Source: Candidatus Heimdallarchaeota archaeon (GTDB lineage Archaea; Asgardarchaeota; Heimdallarchaeia; Heimdallarchaeales; Heimdallarchaeaceae). From it: DNA of 30,960 nt. The position numbers and the translations under genes were made by a program. The notes under the pieces are model-generated. The model ran no database searches. It was not told the DNA's origin and saw nothing but the letters and a program-made list of their open reading frames with translations. Below, piece after piece: positions 18,014 through 27,170 of this stretch. The DNA is taken from the NCBI GenBank assembly GCA_019057375.1, contig DXJF01000123.1, positions 1 through 30,960 on the forward strand. Direction: 5' to 3'. How positions within the stretch are numbered: position 1 is the first letter of the stretch; each line of letters starts with the position of its first letter.

Positions 18014-18271
18014 TTATAATTCTAAAGCTTCTTCAGGCCAGATTTTCTCCACAACTTCGCTGTTGCATTTCATACAGAGATTTTTCTTTTGGATAATCCC
18101 ATCTCTGTCTGTAGAGAAGTTTTGAATTAAACCACGGTCACAGAGAATATCAGATTTACAATCTGTGCAATAGAAATATCTTCCTGTTTGTTTGGGTGAC
18201 CATAGATATTTACTACAGGAGGCACAGCGATCTCTAAAATCACATTTCATGTGTTGAGCAATAATAGTCAA
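18014..18271 (-). CDS. Small Cys-rich zinc-finger protein (8 Cys)
   Basis: Cys at residues 10, 16, 19, 35, 38, 44, 66, 69. TTG start abuts upstream TAA; alternative ATG at 18250. Confidence 0.65.
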   Translation of the reverse strand: MTIIAQHMKCDFRDRCASCSKYLWSPKQTGRYFYCTDCKSDILCDRGLIQNFSTDRDGIIQKKNLCMKCNSEVVEKIWPEEALEL

Positions 18272-18601: not shown

Positions 18602-18675
18602 TGGTGCACGCACCGGGATTCGAACTCGGGTTTCAGCCGTGGGAGGGCTGAGTCCTACCACTAGACTATGCGTGC
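18602..18675 (-). tRNA. tRNA-Gly (anticodon CCC), 74 nt, CCA encoded
   Basis: Cloverleaf read by hand: acceptor GCACGCA/TGCGTGC, D-stem GTCT/GGAC, anticodon stem CAGCC/GGCTG with loop CTCCCAC, T-loop TTCGAAT, discriminator A73. No intron. Confidence 0.95.
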
Positions 18676-18746: not shown

Positions 18747-19934
18747 CTATGTTCTTATTAAGGAATCAACTGTTTCCAGAAAAATTATTATCTCATCCTC
18801 AGTATTGTAAAGATGAGTCGATACTCTTACTATGTCATTGAATTTAAGTTCATACATATACAGATGAGAACATAAAGCCCCACTTCTTACTTGTATATTT
18901 TTCATATCATCTAGAACCATAGCCAAATCGTGTGCTTCTATTTTTTCACTGCCAAATGACAAAATTGGTCCATATTCAGCTCCCTCAATTTTGCTTATCT
19001 TAAGAGAAGGAATGCTTTCTAATCCAGTTCTTAGCTTGGAATGTAATTTTTTCTCATACTCCTGAATCTTTGATAACCCAAAATTCGATAATAGTTCTAG
19101 ACTATTAGTCATTGCAGTTATATTGGCAACATTAACTATACCTGTTTCAAACTTCGAACCTGAAGAATTGAGGAGATAGGAATATTCTTCAAGTGCAATT
19201 ATTGATCCTCCTCCGACAATTAGAGGCTCCATTGCATTATAGGTTTCCTTATTAGTAATCTGGAATGCTGTACCTGTAGGGCCTAAAGCACCTATACACC
19301 CTGAAGATACAACTATATCTGGTGATTCATTATCAAACTTAATCTCTTCATGTCCCACTGAATAACTAATATCTAGAATGAAAGTGGCATCCACTTCTTT
19401 ACAGATTTTAGCTATTTTGTTCCATTCTCTCTTAACACCATTAGTAGCTGTTAAAGAAGAAAGAAGCACAATGTCTTTTGGAGAATGTATTTTTTCACTA
19501 ATTTTCTCAATAAGGGTTGTTTCATCTTCGATATTTAGATATTCGATATCTGTACCAAAAGAATTGTTCACTCTTATTGCTGGAGCTAAAATAGAATGCT
19601 CCTCTAGAATACTAGTAACAACTCTTTTTTCACCTATATTCGGTATTGAATAAAAGGCACTTGTTAGAACCGTTTCCCTTGATGGAAAAAATGAAATTTG
19701 GGATGATTCTACATTGAATATTCTTGAAAGTGATTGCCTGTTTTTTTCCAGAAGTCGATTGCTAGAAGAAATTTCTCTGTGCACCCCTCTAACAGGCGCT
19801 CCTCCTCCATTTCTGTAATATTCCTGTATTTTTCTCATAGAAGAAATAGGAATTTTCCCAATTGTAGCTGAATCTAGATAAATTTGGTCAGGCTTTAGAT
19901 TAAATTCAATTCCAAATCTTGTAGTGGTAGTCAT
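18747..19934 (-). CDS. SufS/class-V aminotransferase-like protein, paralog 1 (PLP lysine absent)
   Basis: YLDSAT, EEHS, LDISY, SSGCIGALGPTG in place of SGHK, FETG, RSGALCSH and RVSTHLYN. Confidence 0.85.
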   Translation of the reverse strand: MTTTTRFGIEFNLKPDQIYLDSATIGKIPISSMRKIQEYYRNGGGAPVRGVHREISSSNRLLEKNRQSLSRIFNVESSQISFFPSRETVLTSAFYSIPNIGEKRVVTSILEEHSILAPAIRVNNSFGTDIEYLNIEDETTLIEKISEKIHSPKDIVLLSSLTATNGVKREWNKIAKICKEVDATFILDISYSVGHEEIKFDNESPDIVVSSGCIGALGPTGTAFQITNKETYNAMEPLIVGGGSIIALEEYSYLLNSSGSKFETGIVNVANITAMTNSLELLSNFGLSKIQEYEKKLHSKLRTGLESIPSLKISKIEGAEYGPILSFGSEKIEAHDLAMVLDDMKNIQVRSGALCSHLYMYELKFNDIVRVSTHLYNTEDEIIIFLETVDSLIRT

Positions 19935-20111
19935 GGTTCCTGTTAGGTTTATTAATAGTAGATTTTAAAATCTTCCTTGCTATGAAATCAAAAAGTTTGA
20001 ATACTACTAAGAATATAAGAAATTAGGGAAAATCTAGAGGATGATCGTAAGGCATTTGGTTAAGCATTAGCGATGCCAGAAAGAAGCTAAGGTGACCTAT
20101 GATTTTCTCTT

Positions 20112-21302
20112 TCATATTTCTACCATTATTGATTCTAATGTTTCTATAAAAGTAACAATGTCCTTTTTTGTGTTATATAGATGAGTAGAAACTTGAACTA
20201 TTGATTCTCGCTTTAATTCATCCATAAAAAGATGAGAACACAGTGCTCCACTTCTAACATAAATGTTTGCCAGATCTTCTAGAATAATCGCTATATCATG
20301 AGAATCAATATCTTCGCTAAAGAAGGAAATAACAGGACCATATGATAAACCATCTTTCTCAACAATATCTATCTTGTTAATATTTTTGAGACCGTCATAA
20401 AGGATTTTTCTTAATTCTTGTTCATGTTTTCTGATTTTTTCAAAACCAATATTTGATAATAGTTGCAGACTATTTGCTAAACCAGAAATAGAGGCTATAT
20501 TCAATGATCCTGGCTCATATTTATTTGGAGCTGATGATAATCTATAGTCAGATTTATTTACGGAAACAACAGCTCCTCCACCTATTAAAACTGGATTGAA
20601 TTCTTTCTCAATTCCACCTGAAATAATTTGAAATGCTGATCCATGAGGGCCAAGAGCTCCTATATCACCAGATGAAATGATGATGTGGGGAGAAATCTTA
20701 TCAAAATTATAGGATGCATGGCCTACACCATTGGACATGTCTAAGATAAACAATAATTCATTGTCAATTGCTAATTGAGATAAACTTTTCCAATCTCTTT
20801 GAACCCCCATTCCAAGAGTTAGTGATGACAGAACGATTGCTTTTGTTTTTGAATTAATCTTTGCTTGAATAGAAGAAACTAAATCGATTTCTTCTTCAAT
20901 TCCTGTAAAGTTGAGATGTGTTCCAAAGAATTTATTTACATTCAATAGTGGTGTTATTACTGAATGATCATCAAGAGAACTAGTTATAATTTCACTTTCC
21001 CTATCGAAACTTTGAGAAAAAAGTGCATTAAGCAACGCAGTTTCTCTTGATGGTAGGAAAGATATACGTGACTGGTCAACAGAGAAGATATCTCCGATAA
21101 TTGAACGAGATTTTTCTAGTGAACGACTAGCATTGATTGCAATTTTATGTGTGCCCCTGCTAATCCCTCCTCCATGTTTGGAATAAAAATCATCCATAAC
21201 TGATACTGAGGACTGAGGCAGTCTTCCTACGGTTGCAGAATCTAGATAAATTTCATCTTCATTGATGATGAAATCTATACCAAAATGATTTTGGACTGTC
21301 AT
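20112..21302 (-). CDS. SufS/class-V aminotransferase-like protein, paralog 2 (PLP lysine absent)
   Basis: YLDSAT, DDHS, LDMSN, SSGDIGALGPHG, YEPG, RSGALCSH and QVSTHLYN. ATG 21302 preferred over TTG 21305. Confidence 0.85.
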   Translation of the reverse strand: MTVQNHFGIDFIINEDEIYLDSATVGRLPQSSVSVMDDFYSKHGGGISRGTHKIAINASRSLEKSRSIIGDIFSVDQSRISFLPSRETALLNALFSQSFDRESEIITSSLDDHSVITPLLNVNKFFGTHLNFTGIEEEIDLVSSIQAKINSKTKAIVLSSLTLGMGVQRDWKSLSQLAIDNELLFILDMSNGVGHASYNFDKISPHIIISSGDIGALGPHGSAFQIISGGIEKEFNPVLIGGGAVVSVNKSDYRLSSAPNKYEPGSLNIASISGLANSLQLLSNIGFEKIRKHEQELRKILYDGLKNINKIDIVEKDGLSYGPVISFFSEDIDSHDIAIILEDLANIYVRSGALCSHLFMDELKRESIVQVSTHLYNTKKDIVTFIETLESIMVEI

Positions 21303-21328
21303 CAATGAATTGATTGAAATTAAGTTGA

Positions 21329-21387: not shown

Positions 21388-21843
21388 ATGGTAAATAATC
21401 TAGATAAATTGGAAATAAATTTGGAAGAGGATATTAACAATTATATAAACAAATTTAACGATTTACTGGACAATTTATCAAGTTTATCTAGTAGTAAAAT
21501 TAATGACATACTTTGGAAACTGAGGGCTGATTTAGAACTTCTGATAATAGAGCTTAAATTTGTTTTAGAGAAGGAAAATAAAACTGAGAGATGGCAATCT
21601 TTGTTCAAAGAGGAACTTAAGGGGACAAGTTCAAAACAAAAAGCTATGAAGATGTTGGAAAGTTATAGGAAGGGCAATCAAGAAATACAAACAATTTTTA
21701 AGAAAAAACCTGAACAAAGTTTCCGATATTTTTGGAAATTGAAAGAGACTATTTCCTCAATTCTTTCGGCATTCGCTGTAGAGAAAATTGAGTGGTCTAA
21801 TGGTGAGATGAAGAAGGTTTCTGAAGATGTTTTTGAAATTTGA
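21388..21843 (+). CDS. Hypothetical all-helical protein (151 aa)
   Basis: ATG start with TTTTTTATAT 24-33 nt upstream. Amphipathic helices. No recognised family. Confidence 0.7.
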   Translation: MVNNLDKLEINLEEDINNYINKFNDLLDNLSSLSSSKINDILWKLRADLELLIIELKFVLEKENKTERWQSLFKEELKGTSSKQKAMKMLESYRKGNQEIQTIFKKKPEQSFRYFWKLKETISSILSAFAVEKIEWSNGEMKKVSEDVFEI

Positions 21844-21860
21844 TTACATCTAACAGTAAA

Positions 21861-21867
21861 TATAAAA
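21861..21867 (+). promoter_or_regulatory. TATA box of the ARPC4-like gene
   Basis: TATAAAA 26-32 nt upstream of ATG 21893. Confidence 0.5.
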
Positions 21868-21892
21868 CAGTAAAACACTTTTGATTACTTGT

Positions 21893-22381
21893 ATGAGTTC
21901 TCATTCACCTGAGTTTTTAGAAGATAAGGAAAAAATCAGGCAAGCTATGAAACTTGAAAAGTATATCTGCCCCCATAGAGAAATTAACTATCCTTGTGTT
22001 ATCTGTAAAGATTGTAGAGATATGGATTTGAAGCAATTTCCACTTAAAAATGGGTTTATCGAGAAAACTAGAAATTCAAGTCTGATTTCGATGATTTTTG
22101 AACTTAGAGATCCTTTCGATGATATGTTACTTAAACGACTAAGTGTAGCACTTTATGAAGCTACAGGAATTGTTCAAAAGGAACCAGAACCAGGATTTTC
22201 TATCACATTTTATATATCTGAAGCATTACTTGACAAAATAACTGAAATTGAGAAATTCATATCTTTTATAGCTGATTTCCAACATAAATTCCTCTCTGAA
22301 ACAATAGCAGCAAGAAGTGCTCTAAATAAATGGGAAAGATCAACAACAAAGCGGTTATTGTGGGATATGAGTATCCAATAA
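21893..22381 (+). CDS. Arp2/3 complex subunit 4 (ARPC4/p20-Arc)-like protein
   Basis: End-to-end colinear resemblance to eukaryotic ARPC4 as recalled: LEKY/LENF, NYP/NKP, IEKTRNS/IEGSINS, IVQKEPEPGFSITFYIS/ILRRKPVEGYDISFLIT, ALNKWER/SVNARAR. Similar length (162 vs about 168 aa). Confidence 0.75.
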   Translation: MSSHSPEFLEDKEKIRQAMKLEKYICPHREINYPCVICKDCRDMDLKQFPLKNGFIEKTRNSSLISMIFELRDPFDDMLLKRLSVALYEATGIVQKEPEPGFSITFYISEALLDKITEIEKFISFIADFQHKFLSETIAARSALNKWERSTTKRLLWDMSIQ

Positions 22382-25072: not shown

Positions 25073-27016
25073 TCATTTCTTCTTATCAGTGTTAAGTGCT
25101 GAATGTTCTAAAGCTAAGTCTTCATACTTCTTAGCAATATAGCTAAATTCCTTTGGAAGGGCATTTCGAAGTACTTCGTGAAAGTTTGTTACTGGGATGA
25201 TTTCCACCATTCCTTTATACCTTTCTTCTAACTTAACATCATCTATATTTTGAATTGGTACAATGACTCGCTTTATTCCAGCTTCAGTTGCAGCTTCAAT
25301 TTTTGCAGTAACTCCACCAACTGGAATAACTATTCCTCTAACTGTTAAACTACCAGTCATAGCAGTATCCTGCCTAATTGGTGCTTTCTCTAGAGCTGAT
25401 ATGATAGAAACAGCTATTGAAATAGAAGCTGAATCTCCTTCGACACCAGAATAAGAACCAACAAATTGAATGTGGTAATCAAAGTCTGAAATATCTTTAC
25501 CGACATACTTCTTTACAATTGCTGAAACATTCTGTACAGCTTCTCTAGCAATAATTCGTAATTGACCTGTCGCAATGATTTTTCCTTCTCTTCTACTGAA
25601 AGCTGGAACAACTTCTGCTTCTATAGGCATAACAATACCTGATCTTTGATTGATGACAGCAAGGCCATTTACTCTTCCAACTTTGGCATCATCAGTTTCA
25701 AAGATTTTGTAGAGTTTTCTTGAATCGGCATAAGAATCACTCATTTGATTTTCCAAAGTTCTTGCAATAACCTTGGCATTTCTAAGTGTCTCAGCAGATA
25801 CTAAATCCTCTCCATTTTCTTTGGCTAAGTCGCCTGCAGCTCTAATTAATCCTCCTAATTCTCGTAATCGTAAAGTAAGATGGTCTTTCTTGTCAGCTCT
25901 TCGTTGAGCTTCATAGATTATTTCTTCAACTGCCTCATGTTTGAAGTGAGGAATTCTTCGATCTTTTACAATCTCCTGCGCACAAAAACGAGCTAGCTTC
26001 CGTCTGTTTTCAGGAGTATCTTTCATAGTATCAGTCATATAAACCTCATAGCCAGATCCTTGAATCCTTGATCTCAACGCAGGATGCATGTTACGAGTAG
26101 TTTCGATATTACCAGCAGCAATTAAAACAAAATTACACGGAACAGGGTCGCTTCTAACCATTGCCCCACTACTAAGTTCTGATTGACCAGTAATTTGCAG
26201 CTTACCCTCTTGCATGGCTGTAAGTAGTTTTTGCTGAGTTCTCATTTCAAGAGTCCCTATCTCATCACTGTAGAGAACACCAAGATTAGATTTGTGAATT
26301 AAACCACTTTCTACACGTTCGTGAGGTGGAGTTCCTAATCCTCCAGATTGGAAAGGATCATGTCTAACATCACCAAGGAGAGCTCCAGCATGTGATCCAG
26401 TAGCATCATTAAAGGGTGCTTTATCCTTTTTACTATTATCTACCAATAATTTTGGTACAAGCATTTCGCTTTTAGATCTGGATTGATTAAGCATAAAGAA
26501 AATGAAAAATCCTACAAACATAGCCATCAAAAGAGTCTGGGGTTGACTAGCAGGATTACCAGCAGTAGCTATCAAAGCATAACCAATTATTGCAAGTAAT
26601 ATTGCAATAGAAATAATGAATCTCTTATTTCCGCTCTTTCTAGCAAGCTCAGCATCCATTTCAACTTTTCTCGCACCATGACCTGCTGGAAGAGTAGCAA
26701 CACGTGGTTGGTTTGGATATTTAGGGTTAGCTATACATAAAACATCAACAAGCTCCTCTTTAGGAAGAAGCTCTGCCATTGCTTGACCAAGCATGCTTTT
26801 ACCTGTACCTGGTTCTCCAATCAGAAGAACATGTCTTCTTTGTAAGGCAGCTTTTTTGATAATTTCAGTTGCATTTTCTTGACCAATTACTTGATCAATT
26901 AAACGAGGAGGTACAGAAATTTCACTAGTATCACTAAATTCAATGTCCAATAGTGCATCTTTTTTAGCTTTAGGCTTGGCCTTTTTCTTGGCTTTAGGTT
27001 GAGTTCCAGACCCCAT
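25073..27016 (-). CDS. lonB: Archaeal membrane-anchored ATP-dependent Lon protease (LonB)
   Basis: Walker A GEPGTGKS, two TM segments inside the AAA+ domain, catalytic Ser in EGDSAS and Lys in GGVTAKIEAA. ATG 27016 preferred over GTG 27025. Confidence 0.95.
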   Translation of the reverse strand: MGSGTQPKAKKKAKPKAKKDALLDIEFSDTSEISVPPRLIDQVIGQENATEIIKKAALQRRHVLLIGEPGTGKSMLGQAMAELLPKEELVDVLCIANPKYPNQPRVATLPAGHGARKVEMDAELARKSGNKRFIISIAILLAIIGYALIATAGNPASQPQTLLMAMFVGFFIFFMLNQSRSKSEMLVPKLLVDNSKKDKAPFNDATGSHAGALLGDVRHDPFQSGGLGTPPHERVESGLIHKSNLGVLYSDEIGTLEMRTQQKLLTAMQEGKLQITGQSELSSGAMVRSDPVPCNFVLIAAGNIETTRNMHPALRSRIQGSGYEVYMTDTMKDTPENRRKLARFCAQEIVKDRRIPHFKHEAVEEIIYEAQRRADKKDHLTLRLRELGGLIRAAGDLAKENGEDLVSAETLRNAKVIARTLENQMSDSYADSRKLYKIFETDDAKVGRVNGLAVINQRSGIVMPIEAEVVPAFSRREGKIIATGQLRIIAREAVQNVSAIVKKYVGKDISDFDYHIQFVGSYSGVEGDSASISIAVSIISALEKAPIRQDTAMTGSLTVRGIVIPVGGVTAKIEAATEAGIKRVIVPIQNIDDVKLEERYKGMVEIIPVTNFHEVLRNALPKEFSYIAKKYEDLALEHSALNTDKKK

Positions 27017-27170
27017 AAATATCACAAATTATAGATAAGAGTATTTTCAATTGATAAGGTTTACTGACGTTAATAAAGATATGTTTTTGGTCAAACTTTC
27101 TGTGCGACACTCACAAATTCTACATTTAATTAAAATGAAAAGGCTTTAATTTCCAACTGATTATAATTGC

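Follow-up and report, generated by a model that had tools for sequence, protein, structure and literature searches.

The window, by which we mean the whole stretch of 30,960 nucleotides analyzed here (contig DXJF01000123.1 of the Candidatus Heimdallarchaeota archaeon assembly GCA_019057375.1), carries two adjacent genes, A and B, that encode relatives of the type II cysteine desulfurase SufS. Both products have lost the Schiff-base lysine of pyridoxal 5'-phosphate (PLP) chemistry and kept the persulfide cysteine, and both belong to one clade of such Lys-less proteins in Asgard archaea. We would give even chances to the suggestion that A and B are PLP-free, Cys-dependent dimeric persulfide carriers (trans-persulfidases) descended from type II desulfurases. 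The original prediction, made from the letters of the window, had proposed a persulfide carrier, sensor or scaffold that works without PLP and is perhaps heterodimeric, and had named the pair the window's best candidate for an undescribed system. The carrier is still the best reading of the pair. The word undescribed has to go in part, since Lys-less, Cys-retaining precedents exist among type I desulfurases (PMC7585200, PMC8918507).

The two predicted open reading frames (ORFs), both on the minus strand, are real. Copy A (P0001) occupies positions 18747-19934 and encodes 395 amino acids; copy B (P0002) occupies 20112-21305 and encodes 397 amino acids from the TTG at 21305, or 396 from the ATG at 21302. 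The products are colinear, come from the same strand and share 45% identity in a gap-free alignment of 393 residues. Each matches the Pfam family PF00266 (Aminotran_5) from end to end (E 2e-58 for A and 3.5e-57 for B). The best NCBIfam model for both is that of SufS, TIGR01979, at 192.3 and 193.9 bits, below its curated cut-off of 475.1. By sequence the closest PDB entry is the cysteine desulfurase of Thermococcus onnurineus (5b7s, E 6e-42). An AlphaFold2 model of A, built with 39 homologues, has a pLDDT of 92.5, and all of its top Foldseek matches are SufS-type structures (TM 0.86-0.90). A and B are full-length proteins with the SufS fold, that is, the class V aminotransferase (fold type I) architecture of type II cysteine desulfurases.

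Residues of the active site are numbered below as in E. coli SufS, translated from the MG1655 gene. The Schiff-base Lys226 is replaced by isoleucine in both copies, and the SGHK motif reads SGCI in A and SGDI in B. The codons responsible are ATA at 19293-19295 (Ile214 of A) and ATA at 20661-20663 (Ile214 of B, counted from the ATG at 21302), both on the minus strand. The original prediction had placed them at the lysine position, and alignments with 5b7s and with E. coli SufS agree. It had also claimed that the PLP-stacking histidine is kept in both copies, and here it was wrong. E. coli M121-E122-H123-H124 aligns with L-E-E-H in A (the EEHS motif, 19593-19604, minus strand) and with L-D-D-H in B (DDHS, 20961-20972, minus strand). 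His123 is gone (A has Glu112 in its place, B has Asp112), and the histidine that remains, His113 in each, aligns with His124. The IscS homologue of His123, His104, is positioned over the pyridoxal ring (PMC9978102), and His123 itself is proposed to deprotonate Cys364 (PMC11507941).

Other positions that contact PLP or substrate have changed along with these. Thr95 is glutamate in both copies, Asn175 is alanine in A and leucine in B, Gln203 is tyrosine or asparagine, His225 is cysteine (Cys213 of A) or aspartate, and Thr278 is isoleucine or serine. Arg379, the binder of the substrate carboxylate, is kept as Arg370 in A and is Gln370 in B. In the set of PLP-contact and catalytic positions tested (His123, Thr95, Asn175, Asp200, Gln203, His225 and Thr278), Asp200 is the sole survivor. 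Retained in both copies are Asp200, Ser223, Arg56, Arg359 and Cys364. The pyridine-binding Asp200 had been correctly predicted, as had the loop with the catalytic cysteine, RSGALCSH, which has the same letters in A (18864-18887, minus strand) and B (20232-20255, minus strand); in A it contains Arg350, equivalent to Arg359, and Cys355, equivalent to Cys364. Judged by these replacements, A and B cannot run Lys-dependent PLP chemistry, and a role as PLP-dependent desulfurases would be impossible for them. The site for PLP and substrate has been dismantled as a whole, and we infer that the cofactor itself is absent.

Could the loss be explained away? Either A and B might still be PLP enzymes, holding the cofactor non-covalently or through another lysine, or they might be decaying pseudogenes. 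The two possibilities together seem to us hardly credible. The presence of Asp200 and Ser223 speaks for the first of them, as do the traces of chemistry that the IscS mutant K206A retains in vitro (PMC9978102). Set against this, at least six PLP or substrate contacts have gone together, and a search by conservation for a replacement lysine, which the original prediction had proposed to look for in AlphaFold models, found none invariant in both paralogues (Lys27 is invariant in A alone and is lysine or arginine in B). As for decay, a word-indexed search collected about 95 homologous proteins at 39-90% identity, nearly all from metagenome-assembled genomes of the Heimdall group. The lysine is present in none of these close homologues and the cysteine in every full-length one, which is the pattern that the original prediction expected; no orthologue retains the lysine, and recent pseudogenization is not supported. 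Reading frames are intact in both copies of the window and in nearly all of about 100 homologues. The ratio of nonsynonymous to synonymous substitution rates (dN/dS), estimated pairwise by the Nei-Gojobori method for orthologues of at least 80% identity with dS of 0.1-0.4, came to a median of 0.18 among the 18 pairs of A and 0.17 among the 25 pairs of B. A and B are under purifying selection of moderate strength and are being maintained; the intact frames and these ratios rule out decay. The original prediction had argued for selection from the fact that two diverged copies share the loss. Selection is borne out by dN/dS, but the shared loss turns out to be one ancestral event and not two.

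That single origin becomes apparent once more distant relatives are considered. A profile search over 1.8 billion representative proteins returned a graded series of further Lys-less relatives ahead of the flood of canonical SufS proteins. Every one of them that bears a source name is from Asgard archaea: Heimdallarchaeaceae, Kariarchaeaceae, Promethearchaeota/Lokiarchaeia, Ranarchaeia or Odinarchaeota. Forty loci were taken from other Asgard families for comparison. At the sampled loci, Lys-less members occur in at least nine Asgard families, and seven further families have solely a Lys-bearing SufS-like protein; one genome (G043, family f3) has both kinds together. A maximum-likelihood tree was built from 82 sequences. 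All 56 Lys-less ones together make up a single clade (SH-aLRT 99) that lies within the Lys-bearing type II proteins, and the split between A and B falls inside the window's own family. Since there is a single Lys-less clade and the A/B split came later, the lysine was lost a single time, early in the evolution of Asgard archaea, and was already missing when A and B diverged. Separate losses in A and B are ruled out by the tree. Within the window's genus, 21 of 24 genomes carry the genes, mostly as two adjacent copies on one contig, and other genera of the family have a single copy or two unlinked copies.

What the clade has kept is as telling as what it has lost. When 51 Lys-less sequences were tabulated against 60 Lys-bearing ones, Arg359 and Cys364 proved to be present in 100% of the Lys-less clade. 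The positions retained in 96-100% of it are Asp28, Asp200, Glu275, Arg359, Gly361, Cys364, Ser381 and Asn386; Arg56 is retained in about 71%, A and B included. Ten positions that are invariant in the Lys-bearing relatives are relaxed in the clade: Thr95, Asn99, His123, Asn175, Gln203, His225, Lys226, Gly234, Thr278 and Arg379. Position 123 is histidine in 39% of the clade and glutamate or aspartate in 53%, position 203 is arginine in half of it, and position 379 is glutamine in 84%. In SufS, Lys226 and His123 have been assigned to PLP chemistry, and Arg56 and Arg359 are the residues most important for persulfide transfer (PMC11507941). The clade has dropped the PLP set and kept the transfer set, and this is the core of the case for a carrier.

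The same table bears on another possibility, namely that a remodelled pocket has acquired a new catalytic function, with Glu/Asp112, His113, Asp188, His195, Cys355 and His374 binding a metal or another cofactor. Possible ligands (E87, H113, D188, H195, C355 and H374) are conserved in the window's family, a histidine that stands in the place of Ala383 (His374 of both proteins) is peculiar to the clade, where it reaches 90%, and His123 has become acidic in two separate subclades (f1 and f31). Most of the former pocket positions are, however, variable and hydrophobic across the clade. Lys226 is replaced by isoleucine, leucine, valine, threonine or arginine, Asn175 by leucine, proline, valine or methionine, and Thr278 by isoleucine, threonine, leucine, phenylalanine or valine. 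Replacements that are mostly hydrophobic resemble a filled-in pocket and not a new polar site. As there is also no match to a known motif and no cofactor-related neighbour gene, we consider new catalysis decidedly unlikely.

If A and B are persulfide carriers, several suggestions can be made as to how they would work. They would no longer cleave cysteine and would retain the second half of the SufS reaction, in which a persulfide is carried on Cys364 and then handed on. Cys355 would accept sulfane sulfur from a true desulfurase encoded elsewhere in the genome (a candidate, at C22:2937-4211, is described below), or it could be loaded by sulfide or polysulfide in an anoxic habitat. It would then pass the sulfur to an acceptor encoded away from A and B; two TusA-like proteins (contig C150), rhodaneses (C69 and C90) and an Ncs6/TtuA-like protein (C145), all encoded elsewhere in the genome, are candidate acceptors, and IscU (C106) may be counted among them. 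A and B would probably act as a heterodimer formed through the normal SufS interface, and its two sites would differ, A having Arg370 and B having Gln370.

One member of the clade stands where a sulfur donor would be expected. In another Asgard genome (G074, L060:130-7389), a Lys-less protein with the motif QSHVG and the cysteine present is encoded by the third gene of a tight co-directional operon. The first gene encodes a phosphoadenosine phosphosulfate (PAPS) reductase-like protein with a 4Fe-4S domain, of the DndC/BrxP-like kind, and the second a methyltransferase-like protein; a PLD-ResIII helicase gene lies alongside. In a second genome (G061, L059:103-2615), a homologue adjoins BrxL. 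In dnd systems the slot beside DndC is filled by the cysteine desulfurase DndA. The gene at L060 has this position, so at least one subclade sits where a sulfur donor is expected. By analogy, these loci look like a BREX type 4 or dnd-like defence island with a cofactor-less "DndA".

The other sulfur genes of the window's own genome have to be considered as well. Its single IscU (NifU_N) gene adjoins an IscS-like gene, and not A or B, in a region outside the window (G000:C106:1593-3331). The IscS-like gene (C106:2120-3331) itself has arginine at the lysine position (NSNR, against SSND in Archaeoglobus fulgidus IscS), and its best PDB matches are the A. fulgidus IscS structures 4eb5 and 4r5f (E ~1e-78). 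The sole desulfurase-like protein of the genome with both the lysine and the cysteine is encoded at C22:2937-4211. Hence three of the four desulfurase-like genes with the catalytic cysteine are Lys-less: A, B and the IscS-like gene. It may be that the building of iron-sulfur (Fe-S) clusters in this organism depends on IscU and a Lys-less IscS alone.

This leads to the main rival of the carrier, a role in Fe-S assembly like that of A. fulgidus IscS. A and B would dock on a scaffold resembling IscU or SufU, Cys355 would be a ligand of the cluster, and sulfide would be the source of sulfur. The precedent is a good one, as A. fulgidus IscS, in which the lysine has changed to aspartate, is inactive and its cysteine ligates the [2Fe-2S] cluster of IscU (PMC7585200, PMC8918507). 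The genome already uses such logic at its IscU locus, and Cys364 is invariant in the clade. Nevertheless, A and B are type II proteins with a short, rigid Cys loop, and no scaffold gene adjoins them in any lineage examined. The lone IscU is already paired with its own Lys-less IscS, SufB/D and SufE were not found in the genome, and the context of the related subclade described above favours sulfur donation to a DndC-like enzyme over cluster assembly. We therefore regard this rival as unlikely, though worth keeping in mind.

Whether A and B work together was approached with a model of their complex, in which each was given its own orthologue alignment. The predicted A+B complex has an ipSAE of 0.90, and the best control reached 0.00; among 80 solved complexes 58 attain this mark, as do 2 of 110 mismatched pairs. 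Contact agreement between runs was at least 94%, and the pLDDT of the partner was at least 89. The predicted interface is symmetrical and corresponds to the canonical interface of SufS dimers; it takes in the former SGHK segment together with the loops of Thr278 and of the cysteine. Structures of SufS homodimers already exist, so this result shows likeness to them and not a preference of A for B. A heterodimer is nonetheless plausible, because A and B occur together almost universally in the genus and differ at position 370.

A role in regulation is a further possibility. A, B or both might pair with a true desulfurase, the Lys-bearing C22 protein, or otherwise modulate it, without catalysis of their own. 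Proteins of the SufS fold are obligate dimers in which both subunits contribute to the sites, the modelled A/B complex shares that interface, and a Lys- and Cys-bearing SufS-like gene does exist in the genome. A pure regulator or stabilizer, on the other hand, has no need for Cys364 and Arg359 to be absolutely conserved across the phylum, and the C22 protein is a distant relative (phmmer E 1.6e-24); the Asgard locus search, with its cut-off of E 1e-55, would miss a Lys-bearing SufS as divergent as this one. We see a slim chance for such a role.

Taking the DndC-like context and the predicted dimer together with the carrier, a more ambitious version can be formulated. An Asgard PLP-free offshoot of SufS would load sulfur without cleaving cysteine and would feed thiolation reactions, including DNA phosphorothioation of the DndC/BREX-4 type, and in Heimdallarchaeaceae it would have come to exist obligately as an A/B heterodimer whose two sites are not equivalent. 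We offer this version tentatively and think that it is rather doubtful in full.

A number of observations weigh against the carrier and its extensions. A dN/dS of about 0.17-0.18 signifies moderate, not strong, constraint. No sulfur-handling gene neighbours A and B in the window's family, as judged by Pfam and synteny. In the genome, which is 89% complete, there is no match to SufE (PF02657) or to SufB/D (PF01458), and the SufBD model matched all 14 control genomes. Asp200 is still conserved, and some pyridine-like ligand could remain bound. The invariant cysteine would suit the role of a metal or Fe-S ligand equally well. The A+B model alone cannot distinguish the predicted heterodimer from homodimers. 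Finally, it is another subclade that shows the dnd/BREX-like context, in 2 of 22 genomes of its genus, and the parallel may not extend to A and B.

The genes around A and B add little to this. Throughout the window's family the whole 30-kb region is syntenic, with LonB, two radical SAM genes, the ARPC4-like gene, a gene for a 151-aa protein, B and A, followed by tRNA-Gly, a zinc-ribbon gene, a LarA-like gene, an MFS gene and PolB. Since the entire region is syntenic in the family, adjacency to A and B carries little information. The LarA-like neighbour was considered as a partner, as its cofactor needs sulfur, and was dropped because the link is lost outside the family. Upstream of B and divergent from it is a pair of plus-strand genes (21388-22381) for the 151-aa protein (21388-21843), which is helical and belongs to no Pfam family, and for an ARPC4-like protein (21881-22381; PF05856, E 1.5e-6). 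This pair adjoins the SufS-like gene or genes across the window's family, single-copy members included (L016, L043, L047 and L049), and is the sole association that persists in the more distant single-copy lineages. Among other Asgard lineages the neighbours vary (GlmS, saccharopine dehydrogenase, endonuclease V, a Ras-like GTPase, Roadblock, PheRS and the CCA-adding enzyme), and no partner gene is common to all of the Asgard lineages examined. The divergent upstream neighbour is a Ras-family small GTPase in families f3 and f4 (L053, L054 and L056), a Roadblock/LC7 protein in family f27 (L074 and L075) and the ARPC4-like protein in the window's family. That three different eukaryote-signature proteins are found at the same relative position may be a coincidence.

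Some details of the region can be recorded here. The spacer between B and A (19935-20111, minus strand) is 177 bp long, and it contains a TTTTAAA box that starts 36 nt upstream of A's ATG; A may thus own a separate archaeal promoter. Downstream of A by 71 nt is a tRNA-Gly(CCC) gene (18602-18675, minus strand), and after it comes an 85-aa Cys-rich, zinc-ribbon-like ORF (18014-18271, minus strand) that is kept in syntenic relatives. In one contig of a relative (L014:2533-7504, from GCA_030603365.1) B and A are parted by an insertion of about 5.5 kb with a TnpB/Cas12f-like gene (PF07282) and several small ORFs, an example which shows that the two genes need not strictly be adjacent. In another (L012:6621-7807) the orthologue of B appears as two called ORFs of 215 and 193 aa and is whole in the near-identical contig L013, so either an assembly frameshift or a recent break is involved. 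The LonB orthologue of a divergent relative (L017:302-3804) is split around an intein (PF14890), and the LonB of the window (25073-27025) is intein-free.

The pair bears on how anaerobic archaea that do without classic cysteine desulfurases deliver sulfur to cofactors, tRNA and Fe-S clusters. Having kept the persulfide loop and the two transfer arginines and discarded PLP chemistry, the clade is a testable candidate for a cysteine-independent sulfur relay. There is also a practical consequence. The genes currently bear labels such as "aminotransferase class V-fold PLP-dependent enzyme" or "cysteine desulfurase/selenocysteine lyase", which would wrongly add desulfurase activity to metabolic reconstructions of Asgard archaea, the nearest kin of eukaryotes.

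In the literature searched we found no account of any Lys-less family within type II (SufS-like), nor of the Asgard proteins treated here, and the sole Lys-less desulfurases described there are of type I, from A. fulgidus and Methanosarcina acetivorans. By sequence, then, Lys-less, Cys-retaining paralogues have a known counterpart in type I IscS, and the type II, Asgard-wide, duplicated form appears new to that literature.

Several known systems can be compared with A and B. The nearest in structure are the type II desulfurases SufS and CsdA (5b7s; 7e6d and 5j8q from Bacillus subtilis; 6mr2 and 1jf9 from E. coli), with which A and B share the fold (TM ~0.86-0.90), the length, the short RxGxxC loop with Arg359 and Cys364, Arg56, Asp200 and the beta-hairpin region. 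The predicted A/B dimer interface is also alike. With the archaeal 5b7s type they have in common a one-residue insertion after the lysine position (SGHKGPMGP in 5b7s, SGCIGALGP in A). They differ from these enzymes in being without Lys226, His123, Thr95, Asn175, Gln203, His225 and Thr278, in scoring below the TIGR01979 cut-off and in having no SufE, SufU or SufBCD genes next to them. DndA and SspA of DNA phosphorothioation are active, Lys-bearing and of the IscS type, and A and B are outside any such operon, although the Lys-less clade member of G074 (L060) takes the desulfurase slot beside a DndC/BrxP-like gene. Closest in what they have lost are A. fulgidus IscS (4eb5 and 4hvk; the D199K mutant is 4r5f) and M. 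acetivorans IscS1, which, like A and B, show natural loss of the lysine with the cysteine kept and the protein maintained in an anaerobic archaeon (PMC7585200, PMC8918507). Those two proteins are of type I, are encoded beside IscU and ligate its cluster, whereas A and B are of type II, are duplicated and have no scaffold gene adjoining. According to the tree, the lysine of A and B was lost independently of that in A. fulgidus IscS, within SufS-like proteins, and the same genome holds a gene of the A. fulgidus IscS type elsewhere.

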